From Abditibacteriaceae bacterium (GTDB taxonomy: Bacteria; Armatimonadota; Abditibacteriia; Abditibacteriales; Abditibacteriaceae): 40,508 nt of DNA. The position numbers were made by a program, and so were the translations under genes. The notes below the pieces were generated by a model, which was not told where the DNA came from, made no database searches, and saw only the letters and a list, made by a program, of their open reading frames with translations. Each line of letters opens with the position of its first letter. Position 1 is the first letter of the stretch. Location of the stretch: the NCBI GenBank assembly GCA_031372065.1, contig JANMKN010000010.1, positions 1 to 40,508 on the forward strand. The letters run 5' to 3'. This document shows, one piece after another, positions 4,679 to 33,111 of this stretch.

Positions 4679-4713
4679 CGAGCGATAAACCCGCTTTTCC
4701 CGTTTCACGCACC

Positions 4714-4748
4714 AAAAAGCGCGCCTCTCACTTGAGAAGCGCGCTTTT
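4714..4748. terminator. Bidirectional intrinsic terminator
   Basis: aaaaagcgcgcctctca-ct-tgagaagcgcgctttt between convergent genes; near-identical inverted copy at 20991-21026. Confidence 0.8.
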
Positions 4749-4823
4749 CGCTGTATCAGTCGCCACACAAATTGGTAAAAAGAGAACCCTTGATAACATA
4801 GTCTGTTGTTGGGCTGCGTGTTA

Positions 4824-5321
4824 TCACGCTCGTGCTTCTATGCTTTGGATGAACTCTGTTTTAGCTGCGGCATAATCATTCACATCCTTCCATTCTTGTT
4901 CAGCCAACTTGCGTTTGAGCATGGCATATTCCGCCGCGACGTTTGGATGTGCTTTGAGGTAATCTCGAAACGAAAGGTGCCTGTTCCAGAACTCACTGTT
5001 GAGTGCAACCATGTGGATTTGGTGAGTGCGGACGCCTGCGTTCTCCTTCCTAAAGAAGCGTCTGAATGGCATGTCCACTTCAAACTGCGAACAATACTCG
5101 TAGCCTAAGGACTGAACGTGCAACACCAAGCCATCAGCCTGAGTGAAATCTGTTAACCCCACCATGATGTCAATGATTGGCTTTGCTGCCAAATCGGGAA
5201 CTGAAGTGCTTCCAATGTGTTCAACCATTGCTGAAGAAGGCAAGATTTGTTGGAGCCGCGTCTTTTCCTCCTCGAACATCTGCGACCAAGCAGACGAGTA
5301 TTCGACTATAGTGACTTTCAT
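4824..5321 (-). CDS. GrpB family protein (nucleotidyltransferase-like)
   Basis: EHIGSTSVPDLAAKPIIDI, FRDYL, YAMLKRKLA, YAAAKTEFI. Confidence 0.93.
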   Translation of the reverse strand: MKVTIVEYSSAWSQMFEEEKTRLQQILPSSAMVEHIGSTSVPDLAAKPIIDIMVGLTDFTQADGLVLHVQSLGYEYCSQFEVDMPFRRFFRKENAGVRTHQIHMVALNSEFWNRHLSFRDYLKAHPNVAAEYAMLKRKLAEQEWKDVNDYAAAKTEFIQSIEARA

Positions 5322-5438
5322 ACTTCAACTTTTAGCACGCAGCCAAGCCGCGCGCAACCGCCCAACTCTGAATTAAACCGCAGTTTTGCGGTGCCGATTA
5401 TATAGTCCCGCGCAGAAAAACCCTCGTGCCCTACGCCG

Positions 5439-5669
5439 GGGGGACGCTAATTTGTTCTGGGGGAGTGTTCCCCTTTTGTAGGGGAGTGTTCCCCTTTCGT
5501 GGGGGAGTGCTCCCCTTTTGTAGGGGAAGGCTCCCCTTTTGCGGGGGAGTGCTCCCCTTTTGCAGGGGAGTGTTCCCCTTTTGTAGGGGAACACTGCCCT
5601 TTTGTAGGGGAAGGCTCCCCTTTTCAAGGGGAACGCTAATTTTCGGCAGGGGAAGCGGTTTTTTTCAAA
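5439..5669. repeat. 21-bp tandem array A (consensus GGGGAGTGYTCCCCTTTTGYA); 8 core units plus ~3 degenerate edge units
   Basis: Core units start at 5460, 5481, 5502, 5523, 5544, 5565, 5586, 5607; each is a GGGGA-N4-TCCCC hairpin followed by a T-tract. Confidence 0.97.
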
Positions 5670-5746
5670 ATTTGGCGAAATTTTGAAAAAATTGGTGATT
5701 TTTTTCAAAAAAAGGCGGTTTTTTTGTCATTTTGGGCCTGAAAAAT

Positions 5747-5774
5747 TTGACTTTTCAAAAAAGTGATTTACAAT
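5747..5774 (+). promoter_or_regulatory. Putative sigma70 promoter of the 236-aa orphan gene
   Basis: TTGACT-N16-TACAAT; AGGAGG RBS at 5807-5812. Confidence 0.6.
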
Positions 5775-5824
5775 AGAGAGTCTCTTCCAAAAAAGAGACC
5801 ATTTTCAGGAGGTTTGTTTATTTT

Positions 5825-6535
5825 ATGCCCAAGACTGTGACTTACGATTACCTTCCCAGTGAAGAAGGGCTACGCGCAGCGTGGCTGAACACCTTCGCCG
5901 AGCGTCTGGCCGCGTATGCGACGACGCTGGGCGTCAGCAGTGCGGACGTGAATTATTTGGTCGCCATAGCCGCCGCTTACAGCTATGCGGTCTACAGCCT
6001 GACCAGCGCATTGCGCAATCTGTCCAGAGCGGTCACTCTTTTCAAAGACAACTTTGAAGGAGATCGCACACCCGACCCGTTGGCGTTTCCGGTGCTGACT
6101 TTGCCCCAACCGCCCATCGCGCCCGTCGGCGTGAATTTGCAAACCGGCGTGTTCATCTGGATTAACGATTTGGTGAACAAGATTCGCAAATCGCCCAATT
6201 ACACCGAGGCTATCGGCATTGATTTGGGCATTGTAGCATCGCCCAAGCCGCCGATTGCGCTCAAAGGCCGCATCACCAAACTCGAAGCGTTTCCCGGCAG
6301 CGAAGTGGACATTTCGTTTGTGCGTCATGGTGCCAAGATGGCTATCATCGAAAGCAAACGCGGCAACGGCGATTGGGAAGTTCTGGATAAAATCGCCGCC
6401 AGTTCGTATGAAGATAATCGCCCGCCTCTGGTCGCCGGACAACCCGAAGTGCGCATTTATCGGATTCGCCTGAGCGACGGCAAAAACGCCTTCGGTGACT
6501 ACTCCGACGAAATGAGTATCAGCACCAAGGTGTAA
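5825..6535 (+). CDS. Array-associated hypothetical protein 1 (predicted helical N-domain, Pro-rich linker, FN3/Ig-like C-domain); paralogue of 28801-29526
   Basis: Strong RBS and terminator; shared motifs DYLPS..G.RA.WLN.F, L.TG.F, NYT..IG..L.I, R.Y..R.SDG.N..G..SD. Confidence 0.88.
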   Translation: MPKTVTYDYLPSEEGLRAAWLNTFAERLAAYATTLGVSSADVNYLVAIAAAYSYAVYSLTSALRNLSRAVTLFKDNFEGDRTPDPLAFPVLTLPQPPIAPVGVNLQTGVFIWINDLVNKIRKSPNYTEAIGIDLGIVASPKPPIALKGRITKLEAFPGSEVDISFVRHGAKMAIIESKRGNGDWEVLDKIAASSYEDNRPPLVAGQPEVRIYRIRLSDGKNAFGDYSDEMSISTKV

Positions 6536-6547
6536 GGTGTAAAACAT

Positions 6548-6586
6548 AAAAAAGTCCGTCCCGAAATTTTCGGGACGGACTTTTTT
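6548..6586. terminator. Intrinsic terminator
   Basis: aaaaaagtccgtcccgaaa-t-tttcgggacggactttttt. Confidence 0.88.
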
Positions 6587-6620
6587 GTTGCGCTTTGTTC
6601 TTTGGTAGGAGACTAAAGGA

Positions 6621-6700
6621 GCGGGGCTAACGCCCTCTTCCAAACGAGTTGATCCCTCTTAGTCTGCGACTGCCCGTTTGGAAGAGGGCGTTAGCCCCGC
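6621..6700. repeat. 26-bp perfect inverted repeat (REP doublet-like)
   Basis: gcggggctaacgccctcttccaaacg (6621-6646) and its reverse complement (6675-6700). Confidence 0.9.
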
Positions 6701-6722
6701 AAATAGTTTGCGCCTCAATAAT

Positions 6723-7994
6723 TTACTTTTTCACATCGTAGCACCAAAGCGTGCCCAGTTCGCGGATGAACAAGCGGCCATTGGCGACTACGGGATAAGC
6801 CCACGCTTTGCTGCGGCCCCGTTCGGGCGGGTTGGGCGAGGCGAAACGGCCTTTTTCTTGATAACTTTCGGGCGTGGCGGCCACTAAAGCGACTTCGCCG
6901 TTTTCGCCGTGCAAATAAAGGCGATTATCGGCGTAGCAAAGCGAAGCGGCACCAACGGCTGGGTTTTCCCATTTAATCTCGCCGTTTTTAAAGTTCACGC
7001 ACAACAGCGCCGAATTGGTGGTGCCATACAGGTAATCCCCGACCAAAACCGCGCCGCCCATAGCGACAGGCATTTTGCGCGCGAAGTATTTTTCTTCGGT
7101 GGAAAATGTTTCTGGCCCACCTTTAATTTGCGCCAAGCCGCCGCCGGTTAAACCTGTCGCCGAATAAACCATATCGCCGCTCACAACCGGCGTTTGAATG
7201 CTGCCGCCGATGCGCTTATCGGCGGTTCTATCGTAAAGCCAGAGCCTTTTTCCGGTTTTGGCTTCGACGCCAACCACGCCTTTTTGCAGGAACTGAATAT
7301 ATTGCTTTACGCCGCCCATTTGCGCGATGACAATGGAAGAATAATTGGCCTCGCCCGCTTCGGGCATCGCTGATTTCCAGATTGTCTCGCCGGTTTTTTT
7401 GTTTAACGCGATCATCGTTGATTCCGCGCCGCCGGGCGTGACAATTAAAGCATCGCCATCAACCAAAGGCGATTCGGAATAAGCCCAAACGCCAACTTTG
7501 CCGCCGAAATCGGTGCGCACGTTTTTCTGCCAAATCACTTTGCCCGTTGCGTTTTCGAGGCAAGCCAAATCGCCATCCGAACCCAGCACATAAACGAAAT
7601 CGCCGTCAATGGTTGGCGTCGAACGCGCACCGGGATAGTTGGGATTCTGCTGCGGGTTGCCGACTTTGCCGATGCGCGTTGACCACACGATTTTGCCATC
7701 GGCGACATTATAAGCACGGGCGAATTCGCTGTCGTTGCCTTCGTTGCTCATCAAATAAAGTCGCGGGCCGCTGACGGCGGGGGTGCTGAAACCATAGCCA
7801 ATATCGCTACTTTGCCACAACAATTTCGGCCCGGCAGCGGGCCATTCTTGCAATAGGCCGGTTTCCTGCGAAATGCCATCGCGGTTTGGCCCGCGCCATT
7901 GCGCCCAATCATTGGCGTGAACGAGGGGCGCAAAAAACGGGGCGCCGAGCAGGGAAATTAAAACAAGAGTCTTGTGGCGATAAATGGTTTTCAT
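6723..7994 (-). CDS. Secreted PQQ-binding-like beta-propeller protein
   Basis: Signal peptide, DWAQWRGPNRDG, repeated TGK.IW motifs, WAYPVVANGRLFIR. Confidence 0.9.
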   Translation of the reverse strand: MKTIYRHKTLVLISLLGAPFFAPLVHANDWAQWRGPNRDGISQETGLLQEWPAAGPKLLWQSSDIGYGFSTPAVSGPRLYLMSNEGNDSEFARAYNVADGKIVWSTRIGKVGNPQQNPNYPGARSTPTIDGDFVYVLGSDGDLACLENATGKVIWQKNVRTDFGGKVGVWAYSESPLVDGDALIVTPGGAESTMIALNKKTGETIWKSAMPEAGEANYSSIVIAQMGGVKQYIQFLQKGVVGVEAKTGKRLWLYDRTADKRIGGSIQTPVVSGDMVYSATGLTGGGLAQIKGGPETFSTEEKYFARKMPVAMGGAVLVGDYLYGTTNSALLCVNFKNGEIKWENPAVGAASLCYADNRLYLHGENGEVALVAATPESYQEKGRFASPNPPERGRSKAWAYPVVANGRLFIRELGTLWCYDVKK

Positions 7995-8005
7995 GGTTGA
8001 AATTT

Positions 8006-9766
8006 CTATTCGGTTGCTAAAACGTGTTGGCCTGATTTTACATCGTCCACGATAATCGCAGTTGCGCCATCGGCTAATGTGAGATTGGCGCCGTCGAAAA
8101 GCGCTTTTTTCGCGTTACCGCGCGGCCATTCGAGGCGCGCTGAGGTGCCAGCCGGAATCGTAAATTCAATTTTGCCGGTGGCGCCTTTGAAATAGCTGAT
8201 GTTGACCGACCCTTTGGCGGTTGGCACTTGGCCGCGCACGCTATGCAAAGTGCCCGCTTGCGGCGCGATGAGGATTTTTTCGTAGCCCGGACTGAGCGGG
8301 CGCACACCCAAAACATAGCGAGAAATGATGTTGGCCGGTGCGCTGCCCCACGCGTGATTCCATGTTAAATTGGGCTTGTATTTGCCGTCCCACGCTTCGA
8401 GTGTCATGGTCGAACCCAGTTCCATCATGTGCCACCAACTGCGATCATGGCGAGCGGTTAGCAGTTGCAGCGCGTCTCTGTCGCGGCCCGCTTTGAACAA
8501 GGCTTCGAGCAGATATTGCGCGCCATAAACGCTGCACTCCATGCCTTTTCCGGCCACAAACGCGGCCACTTTGTCTTTTTTAGCCTCCGGCACTAAATCA
8601 AAAGCCAGCGCGAACATATTGGCGTGCAACGACGAATGATTGCTGCCTTCGCCATCGGTGTAAAGCCCGCTGGCTTCGTTGAAAAACACTTGATTAAACG
8701 CGCCGTAAACAGTTTGTGCTTTCAGGGCGAATTGATGCGCCTCATCGTCTTTGCCCGTCGCGCGTGCCAAGGTTTCCATGCTCTGCAAAGCGTGATAATA
8801 AAACGCGTTGGCGACGGTATTAATTTCCGGCCCGACTTGCTGCTTTTGATTGGGGTCGGCTTTGCCTGCGTTATAGCCATCGCGTTCTCCCGTCGGCCAA
8901 TCCACAATGGCGCCCGCTTTTATCAGGCCATCTTCGCGCGCTTTGTCCATCAGCAACTTCTTTTTCAAGGCCTCGTAATGCTGCCGCGCTAAAACGGCAT
9001 CGCCTGTTGCTTGATAGTCGGCATAAGCCATCATCGGCATATGCAAACTCCACTCTGTCGGCCATGTCGGATGCGCTAAAAGATGGCCGACGGTGTAGCG
9101 CGCCACGCGCGGGTCGAGGTCAACGGCGTAATGCGAAAGTTGGTTGATATAAGCGTCGGCTTCATAAGGAATGCGTTCGCGCTCGCCGTCAATATAAACG
9201 CCAAACGCCGTGGTCGATTTCATGGTGTGCTTGCATAAATTCCACACGGCAGTCAAAACCGTATCGTCGCATTCAAACGACGCGGCGTTATCGTTAAACG
9301 GCGCGTGAACCCAAAGCTGGCGCAGGTTGTCTTTGGACAGTTCGACGGGACAGTTTTCGATTTCGGCATAGCGAAACGGCGCGATTTCGCCGATTTCGGG
9401 CGGCGTGTGAACCGCTGCGGGATTTTTGTGGCGCTCTTTGGTGGGAATTTGCAATTGATAAAGGCGCGTGCCCGGCTGCAAAGATAATTTCACTTCGCGA
9501 TAGCTCACGCTGCCCGGCGGCTTGCGGTCAATTTGACCATCGGCCAGTTTTTCGCCTAAACGAATTGTTAAATCGGCGGCGGGCACATCATTGGCAAATT
9601 TGATTTGCAAGTTGCCATAAGCCGCTTTGCCAAAATCCGCAAAATAATAAGCGCCGCGCCTTTCAAGAAGCATCGGCGCCACGGGCGTGGTTTCCAGCGG
9701 CGGCAAATTTTCAGCAAAAACGGGCAGAGCAGACAACAAAATGAGAGGAAGAAAAACGTTTTTCAT
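8006..9766 (-). CDS. Alpha-L-rhamnosidase-like glycoside hydrolase (GH78)
   Basis: Signal peptide, DFGKAAYG, DGERERIPYEAD, EAWD, NHAWGSAP. Confidence 0.85.
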   Translation of the reverse strand: MKNVFLPLILLSALPVFAENLPPLETTPVAPMLLERRGAYYFADFGKAAYGNLQIKFANDVPAADLTIRLGEKLADGQIDRKPPGSVSYREVKLSLQPGTRLYQLQIPTKERHKNPAAVHTPPEIGEIAPFRYAEIENCPVELSKDNLRQLWVHAPFNDNAASFECDDTVLTAVWNLCKHTMKSTTAFGVYIDGERERIPYEADAYINQLSHYAVDLDPRVARYTVGHLLAHPTWPTEWSLHMPMMAYADYQATGDAVLARQHYEALKKKLLMDKAREDGLIKAGAIVDWPTGERDGYNAGKADPNQKQQVGPEINTVANAFYYHALQSMETLARATGKDDEAHQFALKAQTVYGAFNQVFFNEASGLYTDGEGSNHSSLHANMFALAFDLVPEAKKDKVAAFVAGKGMECSVYGAQYLLEALFKAGRDRDALQLLTARHDRSWWHMMELGSTMTLEAWDGKYKPNLTWNHAWGSAPANIISRYVLGVRPLSPGYEKILIAPQAGTLHSVRGQVPTAKGSVNISYFKGATGKIEFTIPAGTSARLEWPRGNAKKALFDGANLTLADGATAIIVDDVKSGQHVLATE

Positions 9767-9799
9767 GGATGTGAAATCAAGCACGCGGCACTTTATAGA

Positions 9800-10741
9800 T
9801 TATGACTGAACTGCCTTTTGGGAGTCGCGCCAGTGCAGGCGGAGTCGCTCGAAACTCCACAAGGCAGGAGTCAACAACACGGGCACTAATTCGTTGTGAA
9901 TGCGCGCTTGACCGAAATCGCCGACTAACATCATGCCCAACAAAAACGGCGGCGCGATGCAGAGCAAGCGTTTTAAGTCCGCTGGCAAAACGCGCCATGA
10001 AAGCATTGTGAGAATGATCATCCAGCCGAAAGTCAAGAGAATCCAATCTATCGAATCTTGCGGATGGCGCAAAATGCCCGTTATAAAGTTGATATTTGCC
10101 GCCAGATGTTTTTCAAAAATCTTCGCGCCGGGATTATGCTGAAAAAGTCGCGTCAGGGCCGCTTTTACGCTTAACCACAACACCAATTGCAAAAGCCCAT
10201 TGAAAATAATCCAGCGCGTCGGTTGGCGTTTCCAAGTGAGCAAAACGAATGCGAAAATCAAAAAGCAACTGGTTTCCCGATTGAGGCAAGCCAAGAAAAA
10301 CGTAAGGTAATAAAGACGCCATTGGTCGCGTTGAATGAAGGCAACGCCCAGCACGAAAAAGAAAATCGCTGGCACATCCCACGGATAACGGATGCCGCTG
10401 ACGAAAACATAGTTCCACAGCAAAGGGTAAAGCAGCACCAGTGCGTAAAAATCGGCCTTGTCGTGCAGATATTTTTGCAAATAAGCACGCCAAGCCAGCA
10501 GCAAACCGAGCGTGAAGCCAAAAGTTAGCAGCGCATAAAGGAAGGGCAGCGAAAACGGAGCAATACTGGAAAGTCCGCGTGCCAGAAGCGGCATCAATAC
10601 GCGATATTGATAAGGTGTTGCGACGCGAAATGCGGTTAAATCGGCCAGCGAAATGCCGGGTGAATTGAAAGGCGGCTGCCAGTAGAGAAGCGTGAAAAGC
10701 GCCGCGCCGAAACCGTAGAATGGCAAGGCGAAGCGACTCAT
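9800..10741 (-). CDS. Multi-pass membrane protein (possibly GT-C-like)
   Basis: Many hydrophobic segments; PYQYRVL, YPWD, LNRET motifs. Confidence 0.7.
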   Translation of the reverse strand: MSRFALPFYGFGAALFTLLYWQPPFNSPGISLADLTAFRVATPYQYRVLMPLLARGLSSIAPFSLPFLYALLTFGFTLGLLLAWRAYLQKYLHDKADFYALVLLYPLLWNYVFVSGIRYPWDVPAIFFFVLGVAFIQRDQWRLYYLTFFLACLNRETSCFLIFAFVLLTWKRQPTRWIIFNGLLQLVLWLSVKAALTRLFQHNPGAKIFEKHLAANINFITGILRHPQDSIDWILLTFGWMIILTMLSWRVLPADLKRLLCIAPPFLLGMMLVGDFGQARIHNELVPVLLTPALWSFERLRLHWRDSQKAVQS

Positions 10742-10758
10742 GATTTTAGAGTGCGAAT

Positions 10759-11781
10759 TTAATCTTCGCCCCACGGATAAAGCAAAACTTTGCCGCAGTT
10801 GCCGGTCATTTGCAGTTCCCATGCGTCGCGCACTTGCGAGAGGGCAAAGCGATGCGTGATGAATTTATCAATGGCGGCGCTTTGTTCTTTGATGACTTGC
10901 CAGATGCGCGGCGTGTCGCGCAGATTCCAGTGCCACGAGCCGTGCAATGTCAGGCCTTTGCGCAGCATATGATTGCTGACGTTTAACGTCAAATCGCCGC
11001 CTTCGCCCACAAAGGCCACTTCACCGCGTCGCCGCACGCTTTCGATGAGCAAAAGCTGTGCGGGAGCCACGCCCGTGCAATCAATCGCTTTATCGGCGCC
11101 GATGCCGCCCGTTAAAGCGTGAATTTGTTTGAGTGCATCGGGATCGTTAGGATTAATGACGGCGCGCGCGCCCAACTCATGCGCTAATTTAGCGCGATAC
11201 GGCTGCGATTCAACAGCGATAACCCGCGCGCCGCGATGCACACCGTTAATCACGCCACCTAAACCAACTGGCCCCATGCCGGTGATAACAACCGTGTCGA
11301 ATGCATCCACGCGCAAGCGCTGCATGGCGCCAAAAGTGGGGCCAAGGCCGCAACAAGCCATGCTGGCGTGTTCAAAAGAAATATCCGGCGGAATGTGCAA
11401 AAGCAACCAATCGGGCTTCAAAAGATACTGCGCGTAAGTGGCCGTGCCGCATTCGCTTTTAGTTTCGTGTTGCAGATTGCGCCCGTGCTGGCAATGAATA
11501 TAATCGCCCGTCACGCACAATTCGCAATAACCGCAGGCGAACTGGGGCATAACGACCACACGATCACCAATTTTGACGTTGGTCGCCTTGTCCACAAAAG
11601 CGACTTCGCCCGCCGCCTCGTGGCCGAGCGATTCGGTTTTGTGGCCCGGTGCATACATTTTGTATTCGGTGCAAGCGGGCGCGACCAAAATTTTTACCAC
11701 GACAATATCGCCGTGTGGTTGCGGATCGGGTTTTTCGATGAGTTCGACTTGTTTTTCGCCAGTGATGGCCGCGATTTTCAT
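10759..11781 (-). CDS. Zinc-dependent medium-chain dehydrogenase
   Basis: GHEAAG, CGYCELC..G...HC structural Zn site, GMGPVG. Confidence 0.93.
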   Translation of the reverse strand: MKIAAITGEKQVELIEKPDPQPHGDIVVVKILVAPACTEYKMYAPGHKTESLGHEAAGEVAFVDKATNVKIGDRVVVMPQFACGYCELCVTGDYIHCQHGRNLQHETKSECGTATYAQYLLKPDWLLLHIPPDISFEHASMACCGLGPTFGAMQRLRVDAFDTVVITGMGPVGLGGVINGVHRGARVIAVESQPYRAKLAHELGARAVINPNDPDALKQIHALTGGIGADKAIDCTGVAPAQLLLIESVRRRGEVAFVGEGGDLTLNVSNHMLRKGLTLHGSWHWNLRDTPRIWQVIKEQSAAIDKFITHRFALSQVRDAWELQMTGNCGKVLLYPWGED

Positions 11782-11887
11782 GTAACTGCACGCGCCTTTG
11801 TTTTCTATTCCCGCTGTGAGCCTGTTGGAGTGCGTTCAACGTTTTTTCAACGGGAAGGTTCTGGATTTAACGCATTTTAAATGCGTT

Positions 11888-13945: not shown

Positions 13946-13998
13946 GGGTTAAATCATATAATAGTCAATGAATAGGAGATTGACGGCGAGGTAAAGCC

Positions 13999-14118
13999 TC
14001 ATCCCAACGTCGCGGCGTCGTTCCATTCTGCTTTGCAGGACTTGCCGTCTCGCAAAGCGCGAAATTGTTTGGTGTTTTCGTTCCACTGAGCCGTGGCTAT
14101 TGGGGACAAGTGAATCCG
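13999..14118 (-). pseudogene. Possible remnant of the C-terminus of an array-associated gene
   Basis: Start-less frame ending KQFRALRDGKSCKAEWNDAATLG* resembles the C-termini of the two paralogues; lies downstream of array B. Confidence 0.3.
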
Positions 14119-14193
14119 TGACCGTTAGAATCAACTATTTGGCTTCCTTTTTTGGTAATTGGGCGAGCATTTTAAAACGCCTTGCCTTATGCA

Positions 14194-14487
14194 AAAAACA
14201 GCTTCAACCGACCCAAAAACAAGTCCGACTGGTCTAAAAACAAGTCCGACCAGCCTAAAAACAGCTTCGACCAATTCAAAAACAACTCCGACTGATCCAA
14301 AAACAACTTCGACCAATTGAAAAACAGGTTCGACCGGACGAAAAACAAGACTTCCCAGACGCAAAACAGGTTTTACCGACTGAAAAACAGGTTCGACCAG
14401 TTCAAAAACAAACTTTACCGCTCGAAAAACAGCCGGTGAGACGGCGAAAACAACGCGTGAGACGCAAAAAACAGCCATTTTAGGTCT
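14194..14487. repeat. 21-bp tandem array B (AAAAACA-N5-GAC-N6), ~14 units
   Basis: AAAACA recurs every 21 bp from 14194 to 14467 with no indel. Confidence 0.96.
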
Positions 14488-14496
14488 TTTGCGCAG

Positions 14497-15720
14497 TTAA
14501 TGCGGTGCAATATGGCTTGTCGTCTGGCGAATCGCTGCGAGAATCGGCGCGCTGTCTTTGATGCTTTCCCAGTTGTAAAGGCACACAAAACGGCAGCGCG
14601 GGTCGGAAATCGTGTTACTCAGCGCGTTTTTCCACGGCGCGGTTTCGCGCGGGCCAAAAAACATCCATTCGACAGCAGCCCACGCGGGCGCATCGGACTT
14701 TGCCAGCGCGTTTTGCACGCCGCTGTCTTCGCGCGGATTATTGGCGTGCTGATAAAAACTCCAACCGGGACAGCTATATGGATTCAGCGCGGCTCGATAA
14801 AGCAGTTCGTCTTTTTTCCAACCTCCGGCGTGTGTGAAAAGTTTTTCACGCGGCACGCCGATTTTGGCGGCTTGACGGCATAAATCAGCTAAATGGCGGC
14901 GCACAACTTCGGCTTGATCGGCTTCGGTAATTTCGCCTTGCGCCCGCATTCGCGCCGATTTCACTGCCGCGTAGCCGATGGTTTGCACACCGCGCGAAGG
15001 TAAAATATCGGCTTTCGTTCCACTTTGCGGGTCGTCTTTTTCGGGCTTGTCCAACAGCGCATTGCCATTGGGATAATGAAACGAATTCACGCCGATGCTG
15101 GATTCCCAACCGAGTTTGATGCCGACGAATAAATCGCGTTTTTCGGTTGGCAGCACGCGTGCCCAATCCAGAATAACGGGAATTAGTTGCGCTTGCATTT
15201 TGTGACATTCTTTGCGATAGCGTTTGCTCATTAAATTCGGCGGCGGCAAGACGCGAATTTGCCGTCCCCAATTGCGCCACGCGATTTTAATGGCATCGTC
15301 CGGCGTCCAACCCGTCCATTCGACATTGAAACGATTATCGGGATTGTAGCCGGGCCTCGTTTTGTCCCACCAATTCCACAAATCGGGCCGCGCGCCCCAC
15401 CAATTTTCGCCGTCCAAAACCACCAAAACCGGCGTTTCGGTTTCCTGTGACAATTGCAAAAAGTGGCGCAGAGATTTTTGAATCGTTTCCGGGTCGCTGT
15501 GAAAATACGAAAAAATAAAACTGATGCCGCCGCGCACGTTATGCGCTTTGTCATCGCCAAGCGCGGCTTTTATCGCTTCAAAATCTTCTCGCTTGAATGA
15601 ATCAGGATTATTTTGATTCCAGCCATTGCCCGGCGCGCGATTTACCAAAATATATTGCGGTTCGGCGGCGACAAACGGCGAAAAAACGCACAAAAGCAAA
15701 AGCAAACACAGGAATTTCAT
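14497..15720 (-). CDS. Secreted hypothetical protein, possibly glycoside-hydrolase-like
   Basis: Signal peptide MKFLCLLLLLC; Trp-rich; ATGA-coupled to the sulfatase. Confidence 0.65.
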   Translation of the reverse strand: MKFLCLLLLLCVFSPFVAAEPQYILVNRAPGNGWNQNNPDSFKREDFEAIKAALGDDKAHNVRGGISFIFSYFHSDPETIQKSLRHFLQLSQETETPVLVVLDGENWWGARPDLWNWWDKTRPGYNPDNRFNVEWTGWTPDDAIKIAWRNWGRQIRVLPPPNLMSKRYRKECHKMQAQLIPVILDWARVLPTEKRDLFVGIKLGWESSIGVNSFHYPNGNALLDKPEKDDPQSGTKADILPSRGVQTIGYAAVKSARMRAQGEITEADQAEVVRRHLADLCRQAAKIGVPREKLFTHAGGWKKDELLYRAALNPYSCPGWSFYQHANNPREDSGVQNALAKSDAPAWAAVEWMFFGPRETAPWKNALSNTISDPRCRFVCLYNWESIKDSAPILAAIRQTTSHIAPH

Positions 15721-17084
15721 GCCGTCAAAAAGCGCCCGTTGGCGCCGAACATTTCCTGTTCGCGCGCGTTCCACAGCGAAACCAAATCCAACGTTTGCAA
15801 CGTTTCTTGCCAACTCAAACTTTGGTCGCCAGTGCGTTTTAATTGCAGGCTCAGAAGTTCATCCAATTCGTTTTGCAAGCAAGAAAAAGCGGGCTGGCCG
15901 ACGAGATTATTTAATTGCAATGGATCGGCGATGTTATCAAAAAGCAGCCACGCTTTGCCATCCCAAAAACGCGCATAAGTGTGTGTTTTGGTGCGCAGGC
16001 CGCGCCACGGCTGCACGTTTTGGCGCAAGCCTTCGTCGGTTGTGACAAGTTCCTGCAACAGCACGCAAGCGGGCGCTTGGCAAGGCTGGCTGCGCATCGC
16101 AGAAGATAAATCGACGCCATCGAAAAGCGTGTTTGTTTCCACATTCATCAAGCCCAAAAGCGACGGCGTGAAATCGCAAATGGAGAGCAATGTTTCGCTT
16201 TGCGTGCCAGCGGAAATTTGCCCCGGCCAGCGAATGACAAACGGCACATTGATCGCTTCGTCGTAGGGCAATTGCTTTTTCATTAGGCCGTGCGACCACA
16301 GCATATCGCCGTGATCGCTGGTGAAAACCACAATGGTATTCTCGGCCAAATTTGCTTCGTCGAGAAAAGCCAACAAGCGCCCCATTTGAAAATCAAGCGC
16401 CGAAATTGCCGCATAATAATTTTTCAAAGTCGCGCGACATTCCAAGCCGCGCGCTAATTCGTTGGGCGTGTTTTCGATGACATTGCTGCGTGGCTGAACT
16501 TCGTTATACAGCGCGCGAAATTCATCCGGCACCAGCGGATACGGATCGTGCGGCGGCCCCCACGACAAGAAAAGTGCGAACGGATTTGCTTGATTTTGAT
16601 GCAAAAATTCAAGGGCCAAATCGGTCTGGATTTGCGGCTCGTAGCCGGGCAATTCGATGAGTTCGTCGGTATCGCGATAATATTTCGGATGCGCGTAATC
16701 GTGGCTGCAATTATAAGCCGCCCAAAAATCGAAACCATGACGGCGTGGCCCCGGCGGTGTGAATTTGCCGCGCGGCACGCCATCGAGATGCCATTTGCCG
16801 GCATAGCCCGTCGCATAGCCAGCCTCTTTGAGAAAATTTCCAATGCTTGGAATTTCTTCCGGCAACGGCAAATCGTTGCCAACCACGCGGTTATGCTGCG
16901 GCAAAAGTCCGGTCAACAAAATCGCGCGACTGGGCGTGCAAACCGGCGCGTTGGCAAAGCAATTTGCGAATCGCGTGCCTTCGGCGGTCAAGCGATCAAG
17001 GTTCGGCGTGTGCAACTTGCCTTCGTGCCAATCGCAAGCGCGCATTTGGTCGGCGAAAACGAAAAGTAAATTCGGACGCGACAT
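15717..17084 (-). CDS. Sulfatase
   Basis: PNLLFVFADQ, CTPSR, GKWHL, TSDHG. Confidence 0.95.
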   Translation of the reverse strand: MSRPNLLFVFADQMRACDWHEGKLHTPNLDRLTAEGTRFANCFANAPVCTPSRAILLTGLLPQHNRVVGNDLPLPEEIPSIGNFLKEAGYATGYAGKWHLDGVPRGKFTPPGPRRHGFDFWAAYNCSHDYAHPKYYRDTDELIELPGYEPQIQTDLALEFLHQNQANPFALFLSWGPPHDPYPLVPDEFRALYNEVQPRSNVIENTPNELARGLECRATLKNYYAAISALDFQMGRLLAFLDEANLAENTIVVFTSDHGDMLWSHGLMKKQLPYDEAINVPFVIRWPGQISAGTQSETLLSICDFTPSLLGLMNVETNTLFDGVDLSSAMRSQPCQAPACVLLQELVTTDEGLRQNVQPWRGLRTKTHTYARFWDGKAWLLFDNIADPLQLNNLVGQPAFSCLQNELDELLSLQLKRTGDQSLSWQETLQTLDLVSLWNAREQEMFGANGRFLTA

Positions 17085-17096
17085 AGAATTTCAGCT

Positions 17097-18575
17097 TCAC
17101 GCGATAGTTAATTCCAGCGTTGCAATGGATGCAGCCGGCAAAGTAACGCTCAGTTTGCTGCCGTTTAATTTGGCTTCGTTGAATTCTTGCGGCGCAACTG
17201 TATTGGGCGCATCGAAAGTGTTGTGCGCTTGCGTTTTGTCGGCGTGCAAGAGGCGCCCGCTGACGCCGGAAATATTGGCGCCGCGCAGTTCGCATTCAAT
17301 GGTGGCTTCGCGCGAATTATCAGTGTGCGCCAGCGAAAGTAGAATCTTGCCGTCTTTCAGCGAAGCCGAGGCGCTAACGGCGGCGATTTTTTGGTCGCCG
17401 CTGCTAAATTCATCGCCTGACAAGTGCAAAGGCAGCGAGGTGGCGTCGTGATGACCTTTGAACATCTCGAAAACGTGATAGGTGGGCGTAAGCGTCATGC
17501 GCGCGCCATCGGTAAGAATCATGGCTTGCAAAACGTTGATGGTTTGCGCGATGTTAGCCATCTGCACACGCTCGGCGTGTTTGTGGAAAATATGGAAATT
17601 CAGGGCGGCGACAAGGGCATCGCGCATGGTGTTTTGCTGATACAAAAAGCCGGGATTGGTGCCCGCTTCGACGTTCCACCATGTGCCCCATTCGTCCACG
17701 ATCAGCGCCACACGCTTTTTGGGGTCGTAGCGATCCATGATGGCGCTGTGACGCGTGATAAGTTCGTCCATCAGTTGCGTGCGCTGTAAAACGTGATGAT
17801 ATTGCGTGTCACTAAATTCCGTGGCGTTACCTTTATCGCCCCAATCGCCGCCGTGGGTGTAATAGTGCAAGCTGAGGCCATTCATATGGCCTGCCGCGCG
17901 CTCCATTAAAACGTCCGTCCATTTATAATCGGCGACGTTCGGGCCGCAGGCGATTTTGAAAACTTTGTTGCCGCTGAGATGGCGCACATAAGTTTGAAAG
18001 CGGCGGTATTCATCAGCGTAATATTCGGGCCGCATAGTGCCGCCGCAGCCCCAGTTTTCGTTGCCGACGCCGAAATATTTTAGCTTCCACGGAGCTTCTC
18101 GTCCGTTTTCCTGTCGCCATTTCGTCATCGGCGATTCGCCATCAAAGGTGCAGTATTCCACCCATTCTTGCATTTCCTGCACGCTGCCACTGCCGACGTT
18201 GCCGCAAATATAAGGCTCAGCGCCCAATTGTTCGCAAAGCTCGAAAAATTCGTGCGTGCCGAAGTGATTATTTTCGACCACGCCGCCCCAATGCGTGTTG
18301 AGAATCGAAGGCCGCCCTTCGCGCGGGCCGATGCCGTCTTTCCAATGATATTCATCGGCGAAACAGCCGCCCGGCCAGCGCAAAACCGGCGGGTTGAGCT
18401 TTTTCATGGCGCCCACAACATCGTTGCGCAGACCTTTGGTGTTGACGATGCTCGAATCTTCGCCAACCCAGAAGCCTTCGTAAATGCAGCGGCCCAAATG
18501 CTCGGCGAAATGGCCGTAAATATTTTTGTTGATGACTGGCCCGGCTTGATCGGCGTTGATGATAAGCGTGTTCAT
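17097..18575 (-). CDS. abfA: Alpha-L-arabinofuranosidase (GH51)
   Basis: [41 protein letters not shown]. Confidence 0.93.
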
Positions 18576-18787
18576 AGTGGATTCTTTCGATGTTTTGAGC
18601 GGCGCTCCCAGTTTGCCCAATTTATGTGAAACTGACCGCGAAATTTTTGTGAACAGGGCGCAAAACCGGGCCGTCAGCGCGTTTCAGTTGACAAAGTTCG
18701 GTTCTTGCAAGAATTTGCGCGCCGAACAGAAATCGCAAAACGGCATTTGATTTGCGATTTTTGAAAAACCATCTGGGAGGAAAACTT

Positions 18788-19114
18788 ATGAAAAACAAGA
18801 ATCGCTTTATCGGACTTTCGGTGGCAACGGCCATCGCCGCCACCTCGCTTGGTTTCGGCGCCGCCAAACCCGCCGAAGCCAGCACCAAAGGCCGTCGCAA
18901 CACGACCGTCGCTTTAGGTGCTGTGACCGCTTATGGCTTGCTCAAGCATAAGAAAAAAGTCGCCATCGTAGGCGGCGTGGGCACTGCGGTTGCCTACAAC
19001 CGCTACAAGCACAAGAAAAACTGGGAAAAGCGCACCTCCGAGCAGCGCCGCCGTGCTTGGTATCAAAACCGTTATGGCCGCAACTGGCGCGACCATTACG
19101 TTCCCGGTTCGTAA
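18788..19114 (+). CDS. Small secreted basic hypothetical protein
   Basis: GGAGG RBS, signal peptide ending AEA, host-like codon usage, downstream terminator. Confidence 0.8.
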   Translation: MKNKNRFIGLSVATAIAATSLGFGAAKPAEASTKGRRNTTVALGAVTAYGLLKHKKKVAIVGGVGTAVAYNRYKHKKNWEKRTSEQRRRAWYQNRYGRNWRDHYVPGS

Positions 19115-19127
19115 GAACTGGAAAAGC

Positions 19128-19160
19128 AAAAAGCCCCTGAAAGATTTTCGGGGGCTTTTT
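19128..19160. terminator. Bidirectional intrinsic terminator
   Basis: aaaaagcccctgaaa-gat-tttcgggggcttttt. Confidence 0.85.
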
Positions 19161-19215
19161 GTTTTGGCAGGCTCCAAGGGGGCGCAAAGTCACATCTTGC
19201 CGATGCCCTATGGTT

Positions 19216-19923
19216 TCACGGTAACTCGGTAACTGGCGTTTGCGCGTCGTCTTTTTTCGGTTCGGGCTCTTTGCGCGGGTCGAAGCCGTAATTATGCAGC
19301 AACGGGTCTTGGTCGCGTTTGGGCAATCCGTAACTCAAATAATGCCAGATGCGGCTGAGAATATCTTCGGCGGCGAGCAGTTTTTGTTTGCGCAACTCTA
19401 CTAAATCGGAGCGCGAACCCACCGAAGACAGCAGTTCGTTGTCGCTCAGGCGCTTTTTGAGGGGAGTAATCTGCGTAATCCAATCGGCGGGCAAAACGGC
19501 AGCGGCGTTGTGATTGGGGTTGTTTACATCGGCAAAATCGGCGCTGGTGGCGATGAATTGCCCCAAAAACCTGCGCACGCGACTTTGATCGAATTCGCCC
19601 AAATTGCCGCTTTCAAAGCCATAGGCCACCAAAAGCGGCAAGCTGTTTCCGGTCAGCGACAAACCTTTAATCCGATTGTAAACGGCGTGAATCATCGTTT
19701 CAGCGACGGGATAATCCACTTTCAACTGGTCGCTGGCGGTGCGCCGATTGCCTTCGCTGAGGGGAATATCTTCGTTGGCGGCGACTAAATCGTCGAAAGT
19801 ATCCTGCACCTCGGCACGAAATTCGGTGGTGAATTTCCATCTTTTGCCGGTTTCGACCTGAAAATCGGCCTCTAAACACTGTTCTAATTGGTCTGTAACC
19901 TCAGAAATACTGCTGTTTGGCAT
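19216..19923 (-). CDS. Array-associated hypothetical protein 2 (235 aa, helical, internally duplicated)
   Basis: ATG 19923 preceded by TTTTCAGGAGG, the same string as before 5825; the two halves end PLLVAYGF and PLLHNYGF. Confidence 0.85.
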   Translation of the reverse strand: MPNSSISEVTDQLEQCLEADFQVETGKRWKFTTEFRAEVQDTFDDLVAANEDIPLSEGNRRTASDQLKVDYPVAETMIHAVYNRIKGLSLTGNSLPLLVAYGFESGNLGEFDQSRVRRFLGQFIATSADFADVNNPNHNAAAVLPADWITQITPLKKRLSDNELLSSVGSRSDLVELRKQKLLAAEDILSRIWHYLSYGLPKRDQDPLLHNYGFDPRKEPEPKKDDAQTPVTELP

Positions 19924-20007
19924 AAGAGCCTCCTGAAAAACAAGAATTACGGCCCAAGACAGGCCGGAAATGGTCAAAGATTGATAAGAAAAATTAATGC
20001 AAGCTCT

Positions 20008-20275
20008 CTCCCCTATAAGGGGAGGTCTCAACCGAAATCGGTTTGCGCCTCCCCGTATAGGGGGAAAGGCTAACCGAAATCGTTTTGCACTTCCCCCTAT
20101 ACGGGGAAGTCTCAACCGAAACTGTTTTGTGCTTCCCCCTATAAGGGGAGGCTTCAACCGATTCCGTTTGGTCTTCCCCTTATAGGGGGAAGCTCTAACC
20201 GAAACTGTTTTGCGCCTCCCCTTATAGGGGGAAGTCTCAACCGGAATCGTTTTGTGCCTGCCCCGACACGGGAAA
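20008..20275. repeat. 42-bp (2x21) tandem array C, ~6.5 units alternating CCCC-N5-GGGG and AACCG-N4-GKTT palindromes
   Basis: AACCG anchor at 20030, 20072, 20114, 20156, 20197, 20239. Confidence 0.96.
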
Positions 20276-20540
20276 CAGTAAAAACACAGCGGCGGGACTT
20301 TCAAAAGCTATTTTAACGCCCTAAAATACGCTTTGGCAAGCCCAAAACCGCAGTTTTTTCACAAAAATTATGAGTGTTCGCAGTTTACGTAGTCGGATAC
20401 GGTTTTCAGGCGTTTATGACGCCTATGTATTTTCGACTATTTTAAGCATGAAAAAGCGGTTTTATGCTGCCCATTTGCGGGTGAATAACGTTGTTTGGGC
20501 TGCGGCGCGAGGCTTGGCTGCGTGTGTCATACTTTCTGAA

Positions 20541-20912
20541 ATGAATGGCACAGTCCGATGGCGTGGCTATGTCCGCGTCAAGAACAAAAATAAGGCACTC
20601 GAACGCTTCAACACGATGCGAAAGCTCATTGGCAAAGAAGCCAACTTGGTTTCATGTGAACAATACTGGAAAACTAAAGAGCTTTATGAAATTGTGTTTA
20701 CTACTGATTGGTCTTGCGATACAGTAGAGAAGGCGGTGTTCGAGGTTTTGATACTCAGCCAAAAGTTACAAATTGATTGGGATCTGAGTGGCCCCCACGT
20801 TTATCAAAATGGTGTCGTTCAAATCGAAGGATTATTCAATAGCAGTGGTCAATCTACAAAAATCCCGAACCTTGAGTGGATGCTGTATCAGCTACACATC
20901 GAAATTGGTTAG
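20541..20912 (+). CDS. Hypothetical 123-aa protein, AT-rich, cassette-like
   Basis: ATG 20541 follows the motif shared with the GrpB upstream region and CATACT-N7; codon usage differs from neighbours. Confidence 0.7.
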   Translation: MNGTVRWRGYVRVKNKNKALERFNTMRKLIGKEANLVSCEQYWKTKELYEIVFTTDWSCDTVEKAVFEVLILSQKLQIDWDLSGPHVYQNGVVQIEGLFNSSGQSTKIPNLEWMLYQLHIEIG

Positions 20913-20990
20913 CGAAAGTTGACCAACCGCGATAGAACAAGAGACTATGTTAGCAGGCAGTCCCTTTAGCGACTATTCTGAGTTTGAAAT

Positions 20991-21026
20991 AAAAAGCGCG
21001 TTTCTCAAGTGAGAAGCGCGCTTTTT
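20991..21026. terminator. Intrinsic terminator, inverted copy of 4714-4748
   Basis: aaaaagcgcgtttctca-ag-tgagaagcgcgcttttt. Confidence 0.8.
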
Positions 21027-21128
21027 GGTGCGGGTTCGACGCGCTTTGCCGTCCAAAAACCATTGGCGCGGTTAAAAAGTGTCGCGATTCCTGCCAAACT
21101 GAGGGCACTCCAAGAGGAAACGGAAACC

Positions 21129-28673: not shown

Positions 28674-28787
28674 TCCCGCCCGTAAACAAGCGGGCTGAGG
28701 TAAAAACCCCGTGAACGGGGCTAATTACGCCATTTTTAGACCCGTTTACGGGTCTTTTGCCCTCAGCCCAGCGCTTCAGCGGTGGGT
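28674..28787. repeat. Four-hairpin REP cluster related to the MITE interior but lacking TIRs
   Basis: Same order of four palindromes as in 32855-33017. Confidence 0.8.
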
Positions 28788-28800
28788 ATGGTAAGGCCTT

Positions 28801-29526
28801 CTAAGCCTGTGTCGAAACCGCGAAAATATCGCTCCACTGGCCGATTTCGTTGATGCCGTCGGAGTAGCGGAATTGATATTCGCGCGAATCGGCGCGGCCC
28901 GGATTGGCGTTCGGCGTGGTGTCCGTCCATTTGCTGGTGACGATGGTATACGATTTTTCCCACTCGCTCGCGCCGTTGCGGCGCATATGGCCTACAATCA
29001 AGCGATAGTGACCCATCACCAGCGTAAATGTCACCGCGCCGCCGGGCAACGTCACCGGCGTTTTGCCGCGCGGTTTGGCATCGTCGGGCGGCGGTGGCGG
29101 CGTCGCGGGCACTTCGATTTTCAAGGTGGTGCCGATTTGCTTGGTGTAGTTTTTGTGGCGCTTGATGTCGCCGACCAACTCGACCATATAATTGAAAATG
29201 CCCGTCGAAAGCGGCGAAGCGCCGACGGGTGGCGTGGGCGGCGCGGAGATGGTCGGATAGGACGGATAAACAAACGTGTTAGGCGTGCTATCGGTATCCA
29301 CTTCGTCCACTAACGCCGAGAGATTGTTCCAGTAAATATGCGCCGTCGGCTCGGCGGTGTATACCAGATAATTGCAAACCGCCGCGTAATAAGTCACGGT
29401 CGCGATGGTGTTGCTGGTGAGTTCCAGCGGAGTTTGAAACTGCGGAACGTTGATGGAAAAGTCATTGAGCCAACCGGCTCGTGCCCCGCGTCCGCTGGGC
29501 AAATAATCGGGTCTAATCAAAGACAT
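28801..29526 (-). CDS. Array-associated hypothetical protein 3 (241 aa); paralogue of 5825-6535
   Basis: Collinear motifs with 5825-6535 over the full length; GGGGAGAGG RBS. Confidence 0.88.
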   Translation of the reverse strand: MSLIRPDYLPSGRGARAGWLNDFSINVPQFQTPLELTSNTIATVTYYAAVCNYLVYTAEPTAHIYWNNLSALVDEVDTDSTPNTFVYPSYPTISAPPTPPVGASPLSTGIFNYMVELVGDIKRHKNYTKQIGTTLKIEVPATPPPPPDDAKPRGKTPVTLPGGAVTFTLVMGHYRLIVGHMRRNGASEWEKSYTIVTSKWTDTTPNANPGRADSREYQFRYSDGINEIGQWSDIFAVSTQA

Positions 29527-29655: not shown

Positions 29656-29920
29656 CCCGTAGCCGGAGTTTGGGTTAAAACGCGCGGAGTTTTACTCATA
29701 ACGCGCCGTGTTATGGTTAAAACTCGCGGAGTTCTGACTATAACGGGCGGTGTTTTGGTTGTAACGGGCAGTGTTTTAATTAAAACGCGCGGAGTTTTGG
29801 TTAAAACTCCGCGAGTTATGGTTGTAACGCGCAGAGTTTTGATTAGAACGCTGGAAATCCAACCATAACGCGCCGCGTTTCATCCAAAACACCGCCCGCT
29901 ACACCCAAAACGCGCCGCCC
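29656..29920. repeat. 21-bp tandem array D (AAAACGCGCGGAGTTTTGGTT), 8 core units plus degenerate edges
   Basis: Units at 29677, 29698, 29719, 29740, 29761, 29782, 29803, 29824; each has an AAC-N7-GTT palindrome. Confidence 0.96.
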
Positions 29921-31956: not shown

Positions 31957-31985
31957 CGACTCGCGCCGGGTGTCTTCCGATGAGC

Positions 31986-32854: not shown

Positions 32855-33017
32855 ACCCAAGTTGCTACTTATAGCCCCACCCGTGAACGAGTGGGCTGAG
32901 AGCAACCAAAAGCCTCGTAAACGAGGCTGAATTTACAGTTTCCAGCCTCGTTTACGAGGCTTTTGCAGGTTCAGCCCATTGCTTTAGCTATGGGTAGGGA
33001 TAGGTAGCAACTTGGGT
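32855..33017. mobile_element. MITE (163 bp), copy 1
   Basis: TIR ACCCAAGTTGCTAC/GTAGCAACTTGGGT; flanked by direct repeat TAGTTA. Confidence 0.88.
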
Positions 33018-33111
33018 TAGTTACTTAACGCTACGACTCACGATTCCATGTTTACAACATCCGCACCGCGCGTTGCACTAATTGGCGCGCGGACTGATTC
33101 TATTAAACAAT

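Follow-up and report, generated by a model that had tools for sequence, protein, structure and literature searches.

A sedentary chromosomal integron comprises intI, attI, Pc and an attC array. Tetu and Holmes in 2008 and Post and Hall in 2009 are reportedly the sources for the IS1111-attC group of insertion sequences. This group includes ISKpn4, ISPst6 and ISPa25, and the account in PMC11187229 places the long noncoding region downstream of the transposase in IS1111 and upstream of it in the IS110 group. Clusters of attC sites (CALIN) and single attC sites (SALIN) without an integrase, as treated in PMC4889954 and 10.1101/2022.09.11.507474, are proposed there to originate either from cassette insertion into secondary sites or from intI having been lost.

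Two loci in the window (the whole stretch of 40,508 nucleotides analysed here, from contig JANMKN010000010.1) recall each of these systems. Each locus is probably a mini-integron without an integrase, consisting of a copy of attI, one cassette, and an attC split by an IS110 element that has decayed to its right end. The individual parts are of known kinds; the genome-wide combination of solo attI, cassette and IS110 scar was not found in the literature searched. The genome under study (G000, with C-numbers for its contigs) contains approximately 20 such attI-cassette-scar units.

The integrons of the genus itself have the attI sequence, the G|TT crossover, the cassette ends and the attC type seen here; however, the window units have no adjacent intI, exist as about 20 scattered copies, usually hold one cassette, and often have an array module in the place of intI. 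As in CALINs and SALINs, the cassettes are distant from intI and the genome encodes IntI elsewhere, but the window cassettes follow a recognisable attI copy rather than an attG-type site. In addition, CALINs and SALINs have at least one full attC hairpin, whereas both window loci retain only R'' plus 3 nt, and an attC-based search would therefore miss them. The element behind the scar shares with the IS1111-attC group a DEDD transposase, insertion at one set position and in one orientation within attC, and putative guidance by a noncoding RNA, but its long noncoding region lies upstream, as in the IS110 group. The IS621 described in PMC11208160 resembles it in the CT core, in a left-end RNA (predicted for the element here) and in having four guide-like segments, which run from left and right target to left and right donor; IS621 targets REP sequences rather than attC, and the window keeps only a dead right end of 100 nt.

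Matching flanks of the two loci

The initial annotation described unrelated genes (a GrpB gene and a 123-aa orphan) between matching flanks in two inverted loci. All three matches were recovered at the same coordinates, with 19/20 identical positions upstream (5336-5355 vs 20505-20524), 18/20 downstream (4791-4810 vs 20936-20955) and 39/41 in a hairpin (4708-4748 vs 20992-21032). The longest exact word common to both 2.2-kb regions was 17 nt; 2 out of 500 random pairs had a word at least that long, and the downstream motif had 17 matches genome-wide compared to 0 for a reversed control. The flank matches between the loci are not due to chance. The motifs also co-occurred around unrelated small genes at the 18 loci examined, and the orthologous loci of the sister genome G001 are empty sites without either 2-kb block, in line with two checks that the annotation had proposed. 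Among the genomes compared, none of them a close strain, no swap of cargo was seen at a single orthologous locus.

The features of both units are collected in Table 1. Each locus has its own array and protein, as had been proposed, with the two arrays mutually unrelated and the two orphan proteins likewise. Both arrays had been called as 21-bp repeats, which is correct for array 1, but array 2 repeats every 42 bp, with two 21-bp halves in alternation. The proposed start of unit 2 at ~19128 also needed revision: the terminator at ~19127-19161 is shared with G001 and G002 and is the host gene's own, so the unit begins past it.

Table 1. Features of the two units (coordinates refer to the window)
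Unit	Feature	Position	Strand	Evidence
1	IS110-family right-end remnant, attC-targeting	4708..4804	- (cassette strand; IS reads +)	76%/106 nt to L075 right end, E 6e-18
1	Hairpin with A and T tracts, likely bidirectional terminator	4714..4748	.	fold -32.9 kcal/mol with flanks
1	Cassette 1 R'' box GCCCAAC (4814-4808), one base, 2-nt IS core AC	4805..4814	-	sequence; junction as in complete IS insertions in attC
1	GrpB-family gene, cassette 1 cargo	4824..5321	-	PF04229, E 3e-52
1	Cassette 1 5' end, comprising the R' core GTTGGGC (5366-5360), a conserved leader and, 7 nt ahead of ATG, a -10-like hexamer	5322..5366	-	
1	Solo attI, head 1, crossover G|TT 5366/5365	5364..5411	-	22/24 to intI-adjacent attI of G003
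1	21-bp tandem array, palindromic units, core 5460-5632	5439..5660	.	
1	Sigma-70-like predicted promoter of orphan gene 1, between array and gene	5747..5774	+	10/12 consensus match
1	Orphan gene 1, protein of 236 aa with predicted helical hairpin and C-terminal fibronectin-III-like domain	5825..6535	+	
1	Terminator-like hairpin behind orphan gene 1	6548..6586	.	
2	Orphan gene 2, protein of 235 aa, all-helical by low-confidence prediction	19216..19923	-	model pLDDT 38
2	Tandem array with 42-bp repeats, each of two 21-bp halves	20009..20277	.	homology to attI-less paralog C34 stops at array
2	Solo attI, head 2, crossover G|TT 20493/20494	20437..20495	+	40/55 to intI-adjacent attI of G001
2	Cassette 2 5' end and leader, -10-like hexamer 7 nt before ATG	20493..20540	+	
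2	123-aa gene, cassette 2 cargo	20541..20912	+	no Pfam match
2	Cassette 2 R'' box ATAGAAC, one base, AG core of IS junction	20932..20941	+	
2	IS110 right-end remnant, hairpin ~20990-21025	20942..21032	+	72.5%/102 nt to L083 right end

attI copies and cassettes

Both window heads carry the GTT core and upstream L box of attI. A profile built independently, from 11 intI-adjacent attI sites of other genomes only, placed 13 heads (12 seeds and C43) among its top 15 matches in G000; heads 1 and 2 ranked 15 and 7. The E values of the two window heads were weak, at 0.076 and 1.2, and the known heads on C317, C271, C168 and C211 were missing from the top 45 matches. The sole intact intI of G000 lies on C351 (419 bits, over the cut-off), with an attI and an attC array. 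The heads are closer to the attI of other genomes than to this resident attI, and the resident IntI may therefore not use them.

The two genes have the ends of integron cassettes, with a GTT core in R' and an AAC core in R''. The ends of the GrpB cassette are complementary at 4/4 variable positions (5/7 overall), and a G011 homolog 71% identical to this GrpB shares its leader and likewise lies between complementary cassette ends, at a different locus. The leader of cassette 1 also occurs behind full attC sites on C351, C2 and C109; full attC sites in G000 were found on C2, C109, C211, C351 and C365. The 5' end of cassette 2 pairs with its own R'' at only 2/7 positions, and this cassette is therefore chimeric. 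Intermediate arrangements survive on C402 (head, cassette and an attC-like end without IS) and C365 (head, cassette, full attC, cassette and tail), and complete integrons in G003 and G002 terminate in the same tail.

The -10-like hexamer ahead of GrpB reads as a putative promoter, and each cassette probably brings its own -10 promoter and yields a leaderless message. The hexamer is spaced 5-8 nt in 10/21 cassettes, a count for which the motifs were drawn from the same sequences and which has no control. A sigma-70 scan called neither the cassette promoters nor the hairpin. A loose regular expression for the leader was discarded, its 198 matches being mostly chance.

The IS110 scar

In the shared downstream flank, the R'' box of the cassette adjoins a tail that comes from the right end of an IS110-family element; complete copies of this element in relatives sit inside attC. 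Complete elements with both ends within attC were found at L075, L076 and L087, with L098 as a further case, and these copies, together with left ends in L102, L107, L108 and L109, occupy a fixed position in attC. The L076 protein contains both DEDD_Tnp_IS110 (PF01548, E 1e-25) and Transposase_20 (PF02371, E 5e-29). The transposase of the complete elements is flanked by ~190-240 noncoding nt upstream and ~65-80 nt downstream, and all three elements examined have a CT core at both junctions. All three also have four guide-like segments upstream of the transposase, in canonical order, that match the attC target and the donor; these segments were sought as motifs first noticed by eye, and folding gave no confirmation of their loop structure. 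In L087, a change in the right end is accompanied by a corresponding change in the donor guide. Inspection of the IS ends by eye revealed no clear sub-terminal inverted repeats.

Only the last codons of the transposase are retained in the window scars. The unit 1 hairpin overlaps these codons and the stop, and its plus strand reads APKSAPLT-stop, resembling the C-terminus of the transposase of L075, the complete copy used as reference for this remnant; the unit 2 remnant reads APKSALLT-stop on the IS strand. The IS core at the unit 1 junction is AC, where AG is usual. A longer remnant of 209 nt is present on C364, but no complete IS or bridge RNA of the tail's type was found in the G000 assembly (94% complete), and the IS left end and remaining attC are absent from every type-1 scar in G000, an absence that decay explains only loosely. 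A left-end pattern matched 10 places in 151 genomes of the phylum (6 true left ends, 4 chance matches in ORFs, 0 in G000). Scanning metagenomes for the tail gave 7 matches, of which 3 adjoin the tail's transposase and 4 lie within unrelated ORFs. Two other readings of the tail, as an internally deleted attC (prompted by C211) or as an inverted attI-like site, were rejected since in relatives the tail is followed by the transposase and the remainder of attC. The 41-bp hairpin was probably retained as a terminator, and the right-end scar is likely to have persisted because of this role.

Array modules and orphan genes

Orphan gene 1 has no Pfam match but belongs to a set of 26 homologs counting itself; an 87% paralog lies on C271, and its own structure model (pLDDT 89.8) gave FnIII folds as matches. 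Orphan gene 2 also has no Pfam match, its nearest Atlas proteins are hypothetical, and its predicted fold was discarded as unusable at the pLDDT given in Table 1. Paralogs of orphan gene 2 occur on C404 (89%) and C34 (78%), and a scan of genome contigs returned two weak, uninformative loci only. The 123-aa protein has one weak match only among 30 other genomes of the class, and its Atlas neighbours are hypothetical. Rfam gave 8 sub-threshold matches over the window, none meaningful.

The array had been described as part of the composite locus, but the 21/42-bp arrays with orphan genes form a separate and mostly independent family of ~300, only 9 of which (~3%) adjoin a detected attI head, and the module 2 paralog on C34 is without attI. 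Module 2 is 84.6% identical to its counterpart on C404 over 1288 bp, with unrelated cargo.

Origin of the loci

There are several potential explanations for these loci. According to the favoured reading, in which each is an integrase-less mini-integron, IntI would load cassettes in trans at solo attI sites, and IS insertion would destroy attC, as a proposed result of which the last cassette would be locked in place. The attI would be duplicated along with the adjoining array module, and later attI insertions followed by deletions between repeated cassette ends could generate paralogous platforms that carry different single genes, often with mismatched ends. With such a layout, an integrase encoded elsewhere can probably load genes at scattered positions, and we infer that the units have spread and their cargo has been swapped.

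Alternatively, the loci could be pure relics, that is, many whole integrons of three lineages, acquired or duplicated, from which intI and most cassettes have been deleted, with arrays and heads adjacent because they share variable intergenic spots. Three head types do match three distinct intI-linked attI lineages, the low proportion of arrays with heads speaks for this reading, and there is a truncated intI ahead of attI, cassette and IS scar in G009 (L085) and an intI pseudogene on C218 of G000. However, no intI match was found within 3 kb upstream of 21 heads, head and module were duplicated jointly over 1.3 kb, and the order array, head, cassette, tail is found again in G003 and G001, where the arrays are unrelated. 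Arrays are also enriched near heads (7/16 vs 161/2106 gene starts, where paralogs are not independent). We consider this explanation unlikely.

Somewhat less likely still is a platform served by two recombinases, where IntI would add a cassette at the solo attI. Recombination of the new attC with the old IS junction, either by an IS110 bridge recombinase supplied in trans or by IntI working on the top strand of attC, would then excise the old cassette, leaving the tail and a reusable one-gene slot. Such a slot would account for the tails that group with their own platform in groups A and B1 while cargo is unrelated (bootstrap values of 94 and 83 back co-inheritance of tail and platform in two groups), for tail identities (82-87%) close to module identities (80-88%), and for an altered core base common to two group-A paralogs. 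It also fits the chimeric cassette ends of G000, which match their own partner at 3.3/7 positions vs 5.2/7 in relatives (p 0.002). Against it, the assembly lacks the required element and RNA, donor-guide mismatches are poorly tolerated in IS621 as described in PMC11208160, and clean exchange predicts complementary ends, whereas most ends are non-complementary. Overall tail/head congruence was non-significant (Mantel p 0.28; within vs between groups p 0.07), and neither the 5' nor the 3' cassette ends follow the platform groups (p 0.14 and 0.24). No RNA run was listed among the public runs that contain the sequence. Four DNA runs (one study, as contigs) contained no empty or excised form; the depth and positions of two skipping joints are what the paralogs C317 and C271 would produce. 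As a possible source of the window itself, the best run gives no independent support.

It is very improbable, and the idea had already been weakened, that the heads are host promoters which imitate attI through a GCGG-N-TAAT box and serve as attG hot spots, and that the loci are SALINs into which an IS later inserted. The L box of these attI sites resembles a -10 hexamer, and cassette insertion by IntI at genomic GWT sites is reported in 10.1101/2022.09.11.507474. However, most heads share 50-120 bp with true attI, including the upstream inverted repeat, G001 lacks the whole block with the head included, and attG sites are described in 10.1101/2022.09.11.507474 as unlike attI. Finally, a novel transposable element, non-autonomous, defined by terminal motifs of its own and carrying swappable passengers, as suggested by conserved flanks around variable genes and by the insertion relative to G001, is refuted as stated and hardly credible, given that the leader belongs to the cassette end and moves together with the gene, the tail stems from one end of another element, and neither a common outer boundary nor a target duplication was found. 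The dispersed platform for exchangeable cassettes envisaged by the initial annotation survives in outline, as paralogous platforms with different cargo; each flank was traced to a known part (integron attI and leader, and an IS110 scar in attC) instead of to the ends of a new kind of element.

Implications

The mini-integron reading describes a route by which integron cassettes would escape from the array and turn into terminated genes that look like any others on the chromosome, with a guided IS110 element destroying attC and leaving its own end behind. Cassette-derived genes are probably undercounted in genomes because they are invisible to attC-based tools. Natural test parts are also available, namely the three attI types of a single genome, its resident IntI and, from a sister genome, an intact bridge recombinase aimed at attC, with which both the use of solo attI in trans and the action of the bridge recombinase on a half-element junction could be examined. 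It is doubtful, but conceivable, that the genome houses a distributed integron of ~20 solo attI slots on array modules, loaded by a single IntI in trans and emptied via RNA-guided IS110 recombination on a domesticated scar, each slot holding one self-promoted, terminated gene; if true, this would be a natural two-enzyme cassette exchange.

Flank matches across the genome

The initial annotation had described three flank matches between two window loci, those of the GrpB gene (unit 1) and of the 123-aa gene (unit 2), and their positions and identities were confirmed on the window sequence. In the 6.14 Mb assembly of this genome (G000; 410 contigs, with the window as C277), 56 matches were obtained with a profile built from the downstream flank. 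In many of these the hairpin merely matched itself in reverse, and the 28 matches starting within the first 30 model positions were retained. The junction motif is present in 25 of these, the hairpin in 19 and both in 17. The cargo genes preceding the flanks are short and unrelated, and a BLAST comparison of 17 cargo proteins linked only two ankyrin-like proteins.

Integron cassettes and attI heads

Judged from its sequence, the upstream flank is the start of an integron cassette. Contig C351 of G000 encodes an intact integron integrase (419 bits against a cut-off of 265), and an attC array and a divergent attI lie with it. Complete attC sites are found on C2, C109, C211 and C365 as well, with both halves present in 18 of 20 matches. 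The cassettes behind these sites start with GTT and the leader GCGCGCGGCTTGG, which the window genes also have, and a GrpB homolog from another genus (L113, 71% identical) has the same leader as far as the ATG, along with complementary ends. Because these cassettes and the homolog have the leader in common, the 19/20 upstream match belongs to the cassette and moves together with its gene. The terms R', R'' and L box and recombination of the attC top strand belong to general integron knowledge.

The sequence preceding the GTT can be assigned to attI by comparison with true attI sites, which were read from the region that precedes intI in relatives (of 27 family genomes, 13 have an intI scoring above the cut-off). 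Head 1, the attI-like site of unit 1, is identical to the attI of sister genome G003 at 22 of 24 positions and head 2 to that of G001 at 40 of 55, while a third head type in G000 matches the attI of G002. To guard against circularity, an independent profile was built from 11 intI-adjacent sites in other genomes only; its top 15 matches in G000 comprised 12 heads picked by eye, C43 (also with a scar behind it), C236 and one apparent chance match. The two window heads were placed 7th and 15th, both with weak E-values, and this search of G000 missed several known heads. Among heads whose best alignment extends to the crossover, most are homologous to true attI over approximately 25-130 bp, and the 3 kb upstream of each of 21 heads contained no intI remnant.

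Several further features of these cassettes were observed. Genome-wide, a -10-like hexamer lies 5-8 nt before the ATG in 10 of 21 cassette leaders (a count without a control set), and the shared leader with this hexamer suggests self-promoted, leaderless cassettes as opposed to the usual promoterless ones. At L074, L077 and L084 and in the window (C277), an upstream ATG opens a frame reading through attI into the first cassette gene; several integrons have such a frame, as do C277 and its paralog C404. In the integron arrays at L075 and L090 (G002), a single short non-coding cassette is repeated many times in tandem, and within this cassette lies an inverted repeat of the cassette's own end.

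An IS110 scar downstream

The downstream flank is the scar of an IS110 element. Its 20-nt pattern is present in 10 of 27 family genomes. Behind the pattern at L075 (G002), L076 (G003) and L087 (G006) come an opposite-strand transposase and, 1.26-1.41 kb beyond the pattern, the remainder of an attC. Only L076 among these three retains an intact transposase reading frame, and its product is an IS110-family transposase. Both IS junctions have the same core, CT when read on the IS strand. Upstream of the transposase gene lies a long non-coding end, the layout that passages of PMC11187229 give for the IS110 group, with segments matching first the target (left, then right) and then the donor (left, then right), as reported for IS621 (PMC11208160); at L087, donor guide and right end are altered together. 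The window tails align with such right ends over approximately 100 nt at 72-76%, and the hairpin overlaps the last codons and stop of the transposase. The remnants in G000 are 26 to 209 nt long, the majority ending just beyond the hairpin, and mirror remnants (left end plus downstream cassette) occur in G011 and G003. A search of G000 for a left end or complete transposase of this IS110 element found neither.

A second IS110 type targets the L' side of attC at L086 (G006:C4), where approximately 1.3 kb of it ends 640 nt before the tail, and G000 has an internally deleted copy (C109:2040-2580). At C211:2798 of G000, a first-type right end sits at the second-type attC position, suggesting that the guide was re-aimed or that the two elements cross-talk. 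In a metagenome contig (L098), a complete copy of the first-type IS and attC lie directly behind an apparent sigma/anti-sigma gene pair.

Paralogous platforms and cargo change

Module 2, the array and orphan gene diverging from unit 2, is 84.6% identical to C404 along 1288 bp, a stretch that extends from the orphan gene through the leader; beyond the leader the cargo is unlike, and the tails match again. Module 1 shows the same pattern against C271 and C317, and C34 has the orphan and array of module 2 without attI. In a tree of 25 tails, the three tails of platform group A (bootstrap 94) and the two of group B1 (83) cluster as the platforms do, with group B3 weak (47) and group C scattered; overall tests of tail/platform congruence in G000 were not significant.

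Cassettes between intact attC sites have complementary ends: 20 of 27, a few rows of which are mis-parsed, pair without mismatch at all four variable bases. The same holds for one of 17 tail-ended units in G000, which is no better than random pairing. Each cassette end taken separately matches a known cassette end at approximately 6/7, versus 4/7 for random 7-mers, and ends pairing at 5/7 or better were found in 8 of 11 tail-ended cassettes of relatives but only 4 of 17 in G000. Since the ends are mismatched, each is of a known type and those of relatives pair well, many G000 units, window unit 2 included, are recombinant, joining parts of different cassettes. A short array that lost the stretch between two copies of the leader, or between two copies of a 3' end, would explain such units.

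The host genes on either side of each block are direct neighbors in G001, approximately 57 and 50 bp apart, at an identity (approximately 80%) too low to fix the exact block junctions. Other neighbor genes occupy these places in G002 and G003, which leaves a single genome to indicate the direction of change.

Arrays, orphan genes and other window features

G000 contains approximately 300 arrays with a period of 20-22 bp or multiples thereof, 11 of them inside long ORFs, and some precede families of helical orphan genes. A 120-kb sample of G001-G003 DNA, not chosen with arrays in view, showed none; two tail loci of these sister genomes do carry an array (L079 and L081). Arrays appear to be expanded in number in G000 relative to the sister genomes. 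An array lies within 450 bp of 9 of 22 heads, and among heads with enough contig the proportion is 7 of 16 versus 161 of 2106 gene starts, a comparison inflated by paralogy. L079 (G003:C63) has the window layout in a sister genome, with orphan gene, array, attI head, two genes (by impression a methylase-nuclease pair) and IS scar. At C220:5388 (-) of G000, an array runs straight into an attI-like head with which its units have a short motif in common, as if it had grown from attI-proximal sequence. The NB-ARC/TPR and cyclase-like genes of the window are possibly a signalling or defence pair.

Features of the window
Feature	Position	Strand	Remarks
GrpB gene (unit 1)	4824-5321	-	
Cassette leader, unit 1	5322-5359		
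Orphan gene 1	5825-6535	+	236 aa; predicted helical hairpin and FnIII-like domain
REP-like palindrome	6621-6700		26-bp perfect arms; many copies in G000 and relatives
21-bp array	14194-14476		
Orphan gene 2	19216-19923	-	235 aa
attI read-through frame	20370-20912		
Cassette leader, unit 2	20496-20540		
123-aa gene (unit 2)	20541-20912	+	
Palindromic element	28701-28790		many copies in relatives
Orphan gene	28801-29526	-	241 aa; 31% identical to orphan 1; preceded by the array at 29664
21-bp array	29664-29851		
NB-ARC plus TPR-repeat gene	29926-32843		adjoins adenylate/guanylate-cyclase-like gene
Palindromic element	32876-33021		146-nt inverted repeat pair with 39785-39930; many copies in relatives
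Palindromic element	39785-39930		pair of 32876-33021
21-bp array	40189-40399		

Comparison with known systems

The window units would work like SALINs and CALINs served in trans, as portrayed in sections of PMC4889954 and 10.1101/2022.09.11.507474. They fall outside the SALIN/CALIN definition because attC is no longer present, and outside that of an integron because they are without intI. Sections of PMC4792948 report that attI recombines with attI and with secondary sites, a possible route by which attI could move. Targeting of attC has been published for IS1111-group elements, and our literature search found no paper on attC-targeting by IS110-group elements. Nor did this search, which covered mainly open-access papers and the main texts of preprints, bring up a description of numerous attI sites scattered through a genome and closed off by IS scars. 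The loci are a real and well-explained variant, new but assembled from known parts, and the question they pose, that of cargo turnover, is testable.
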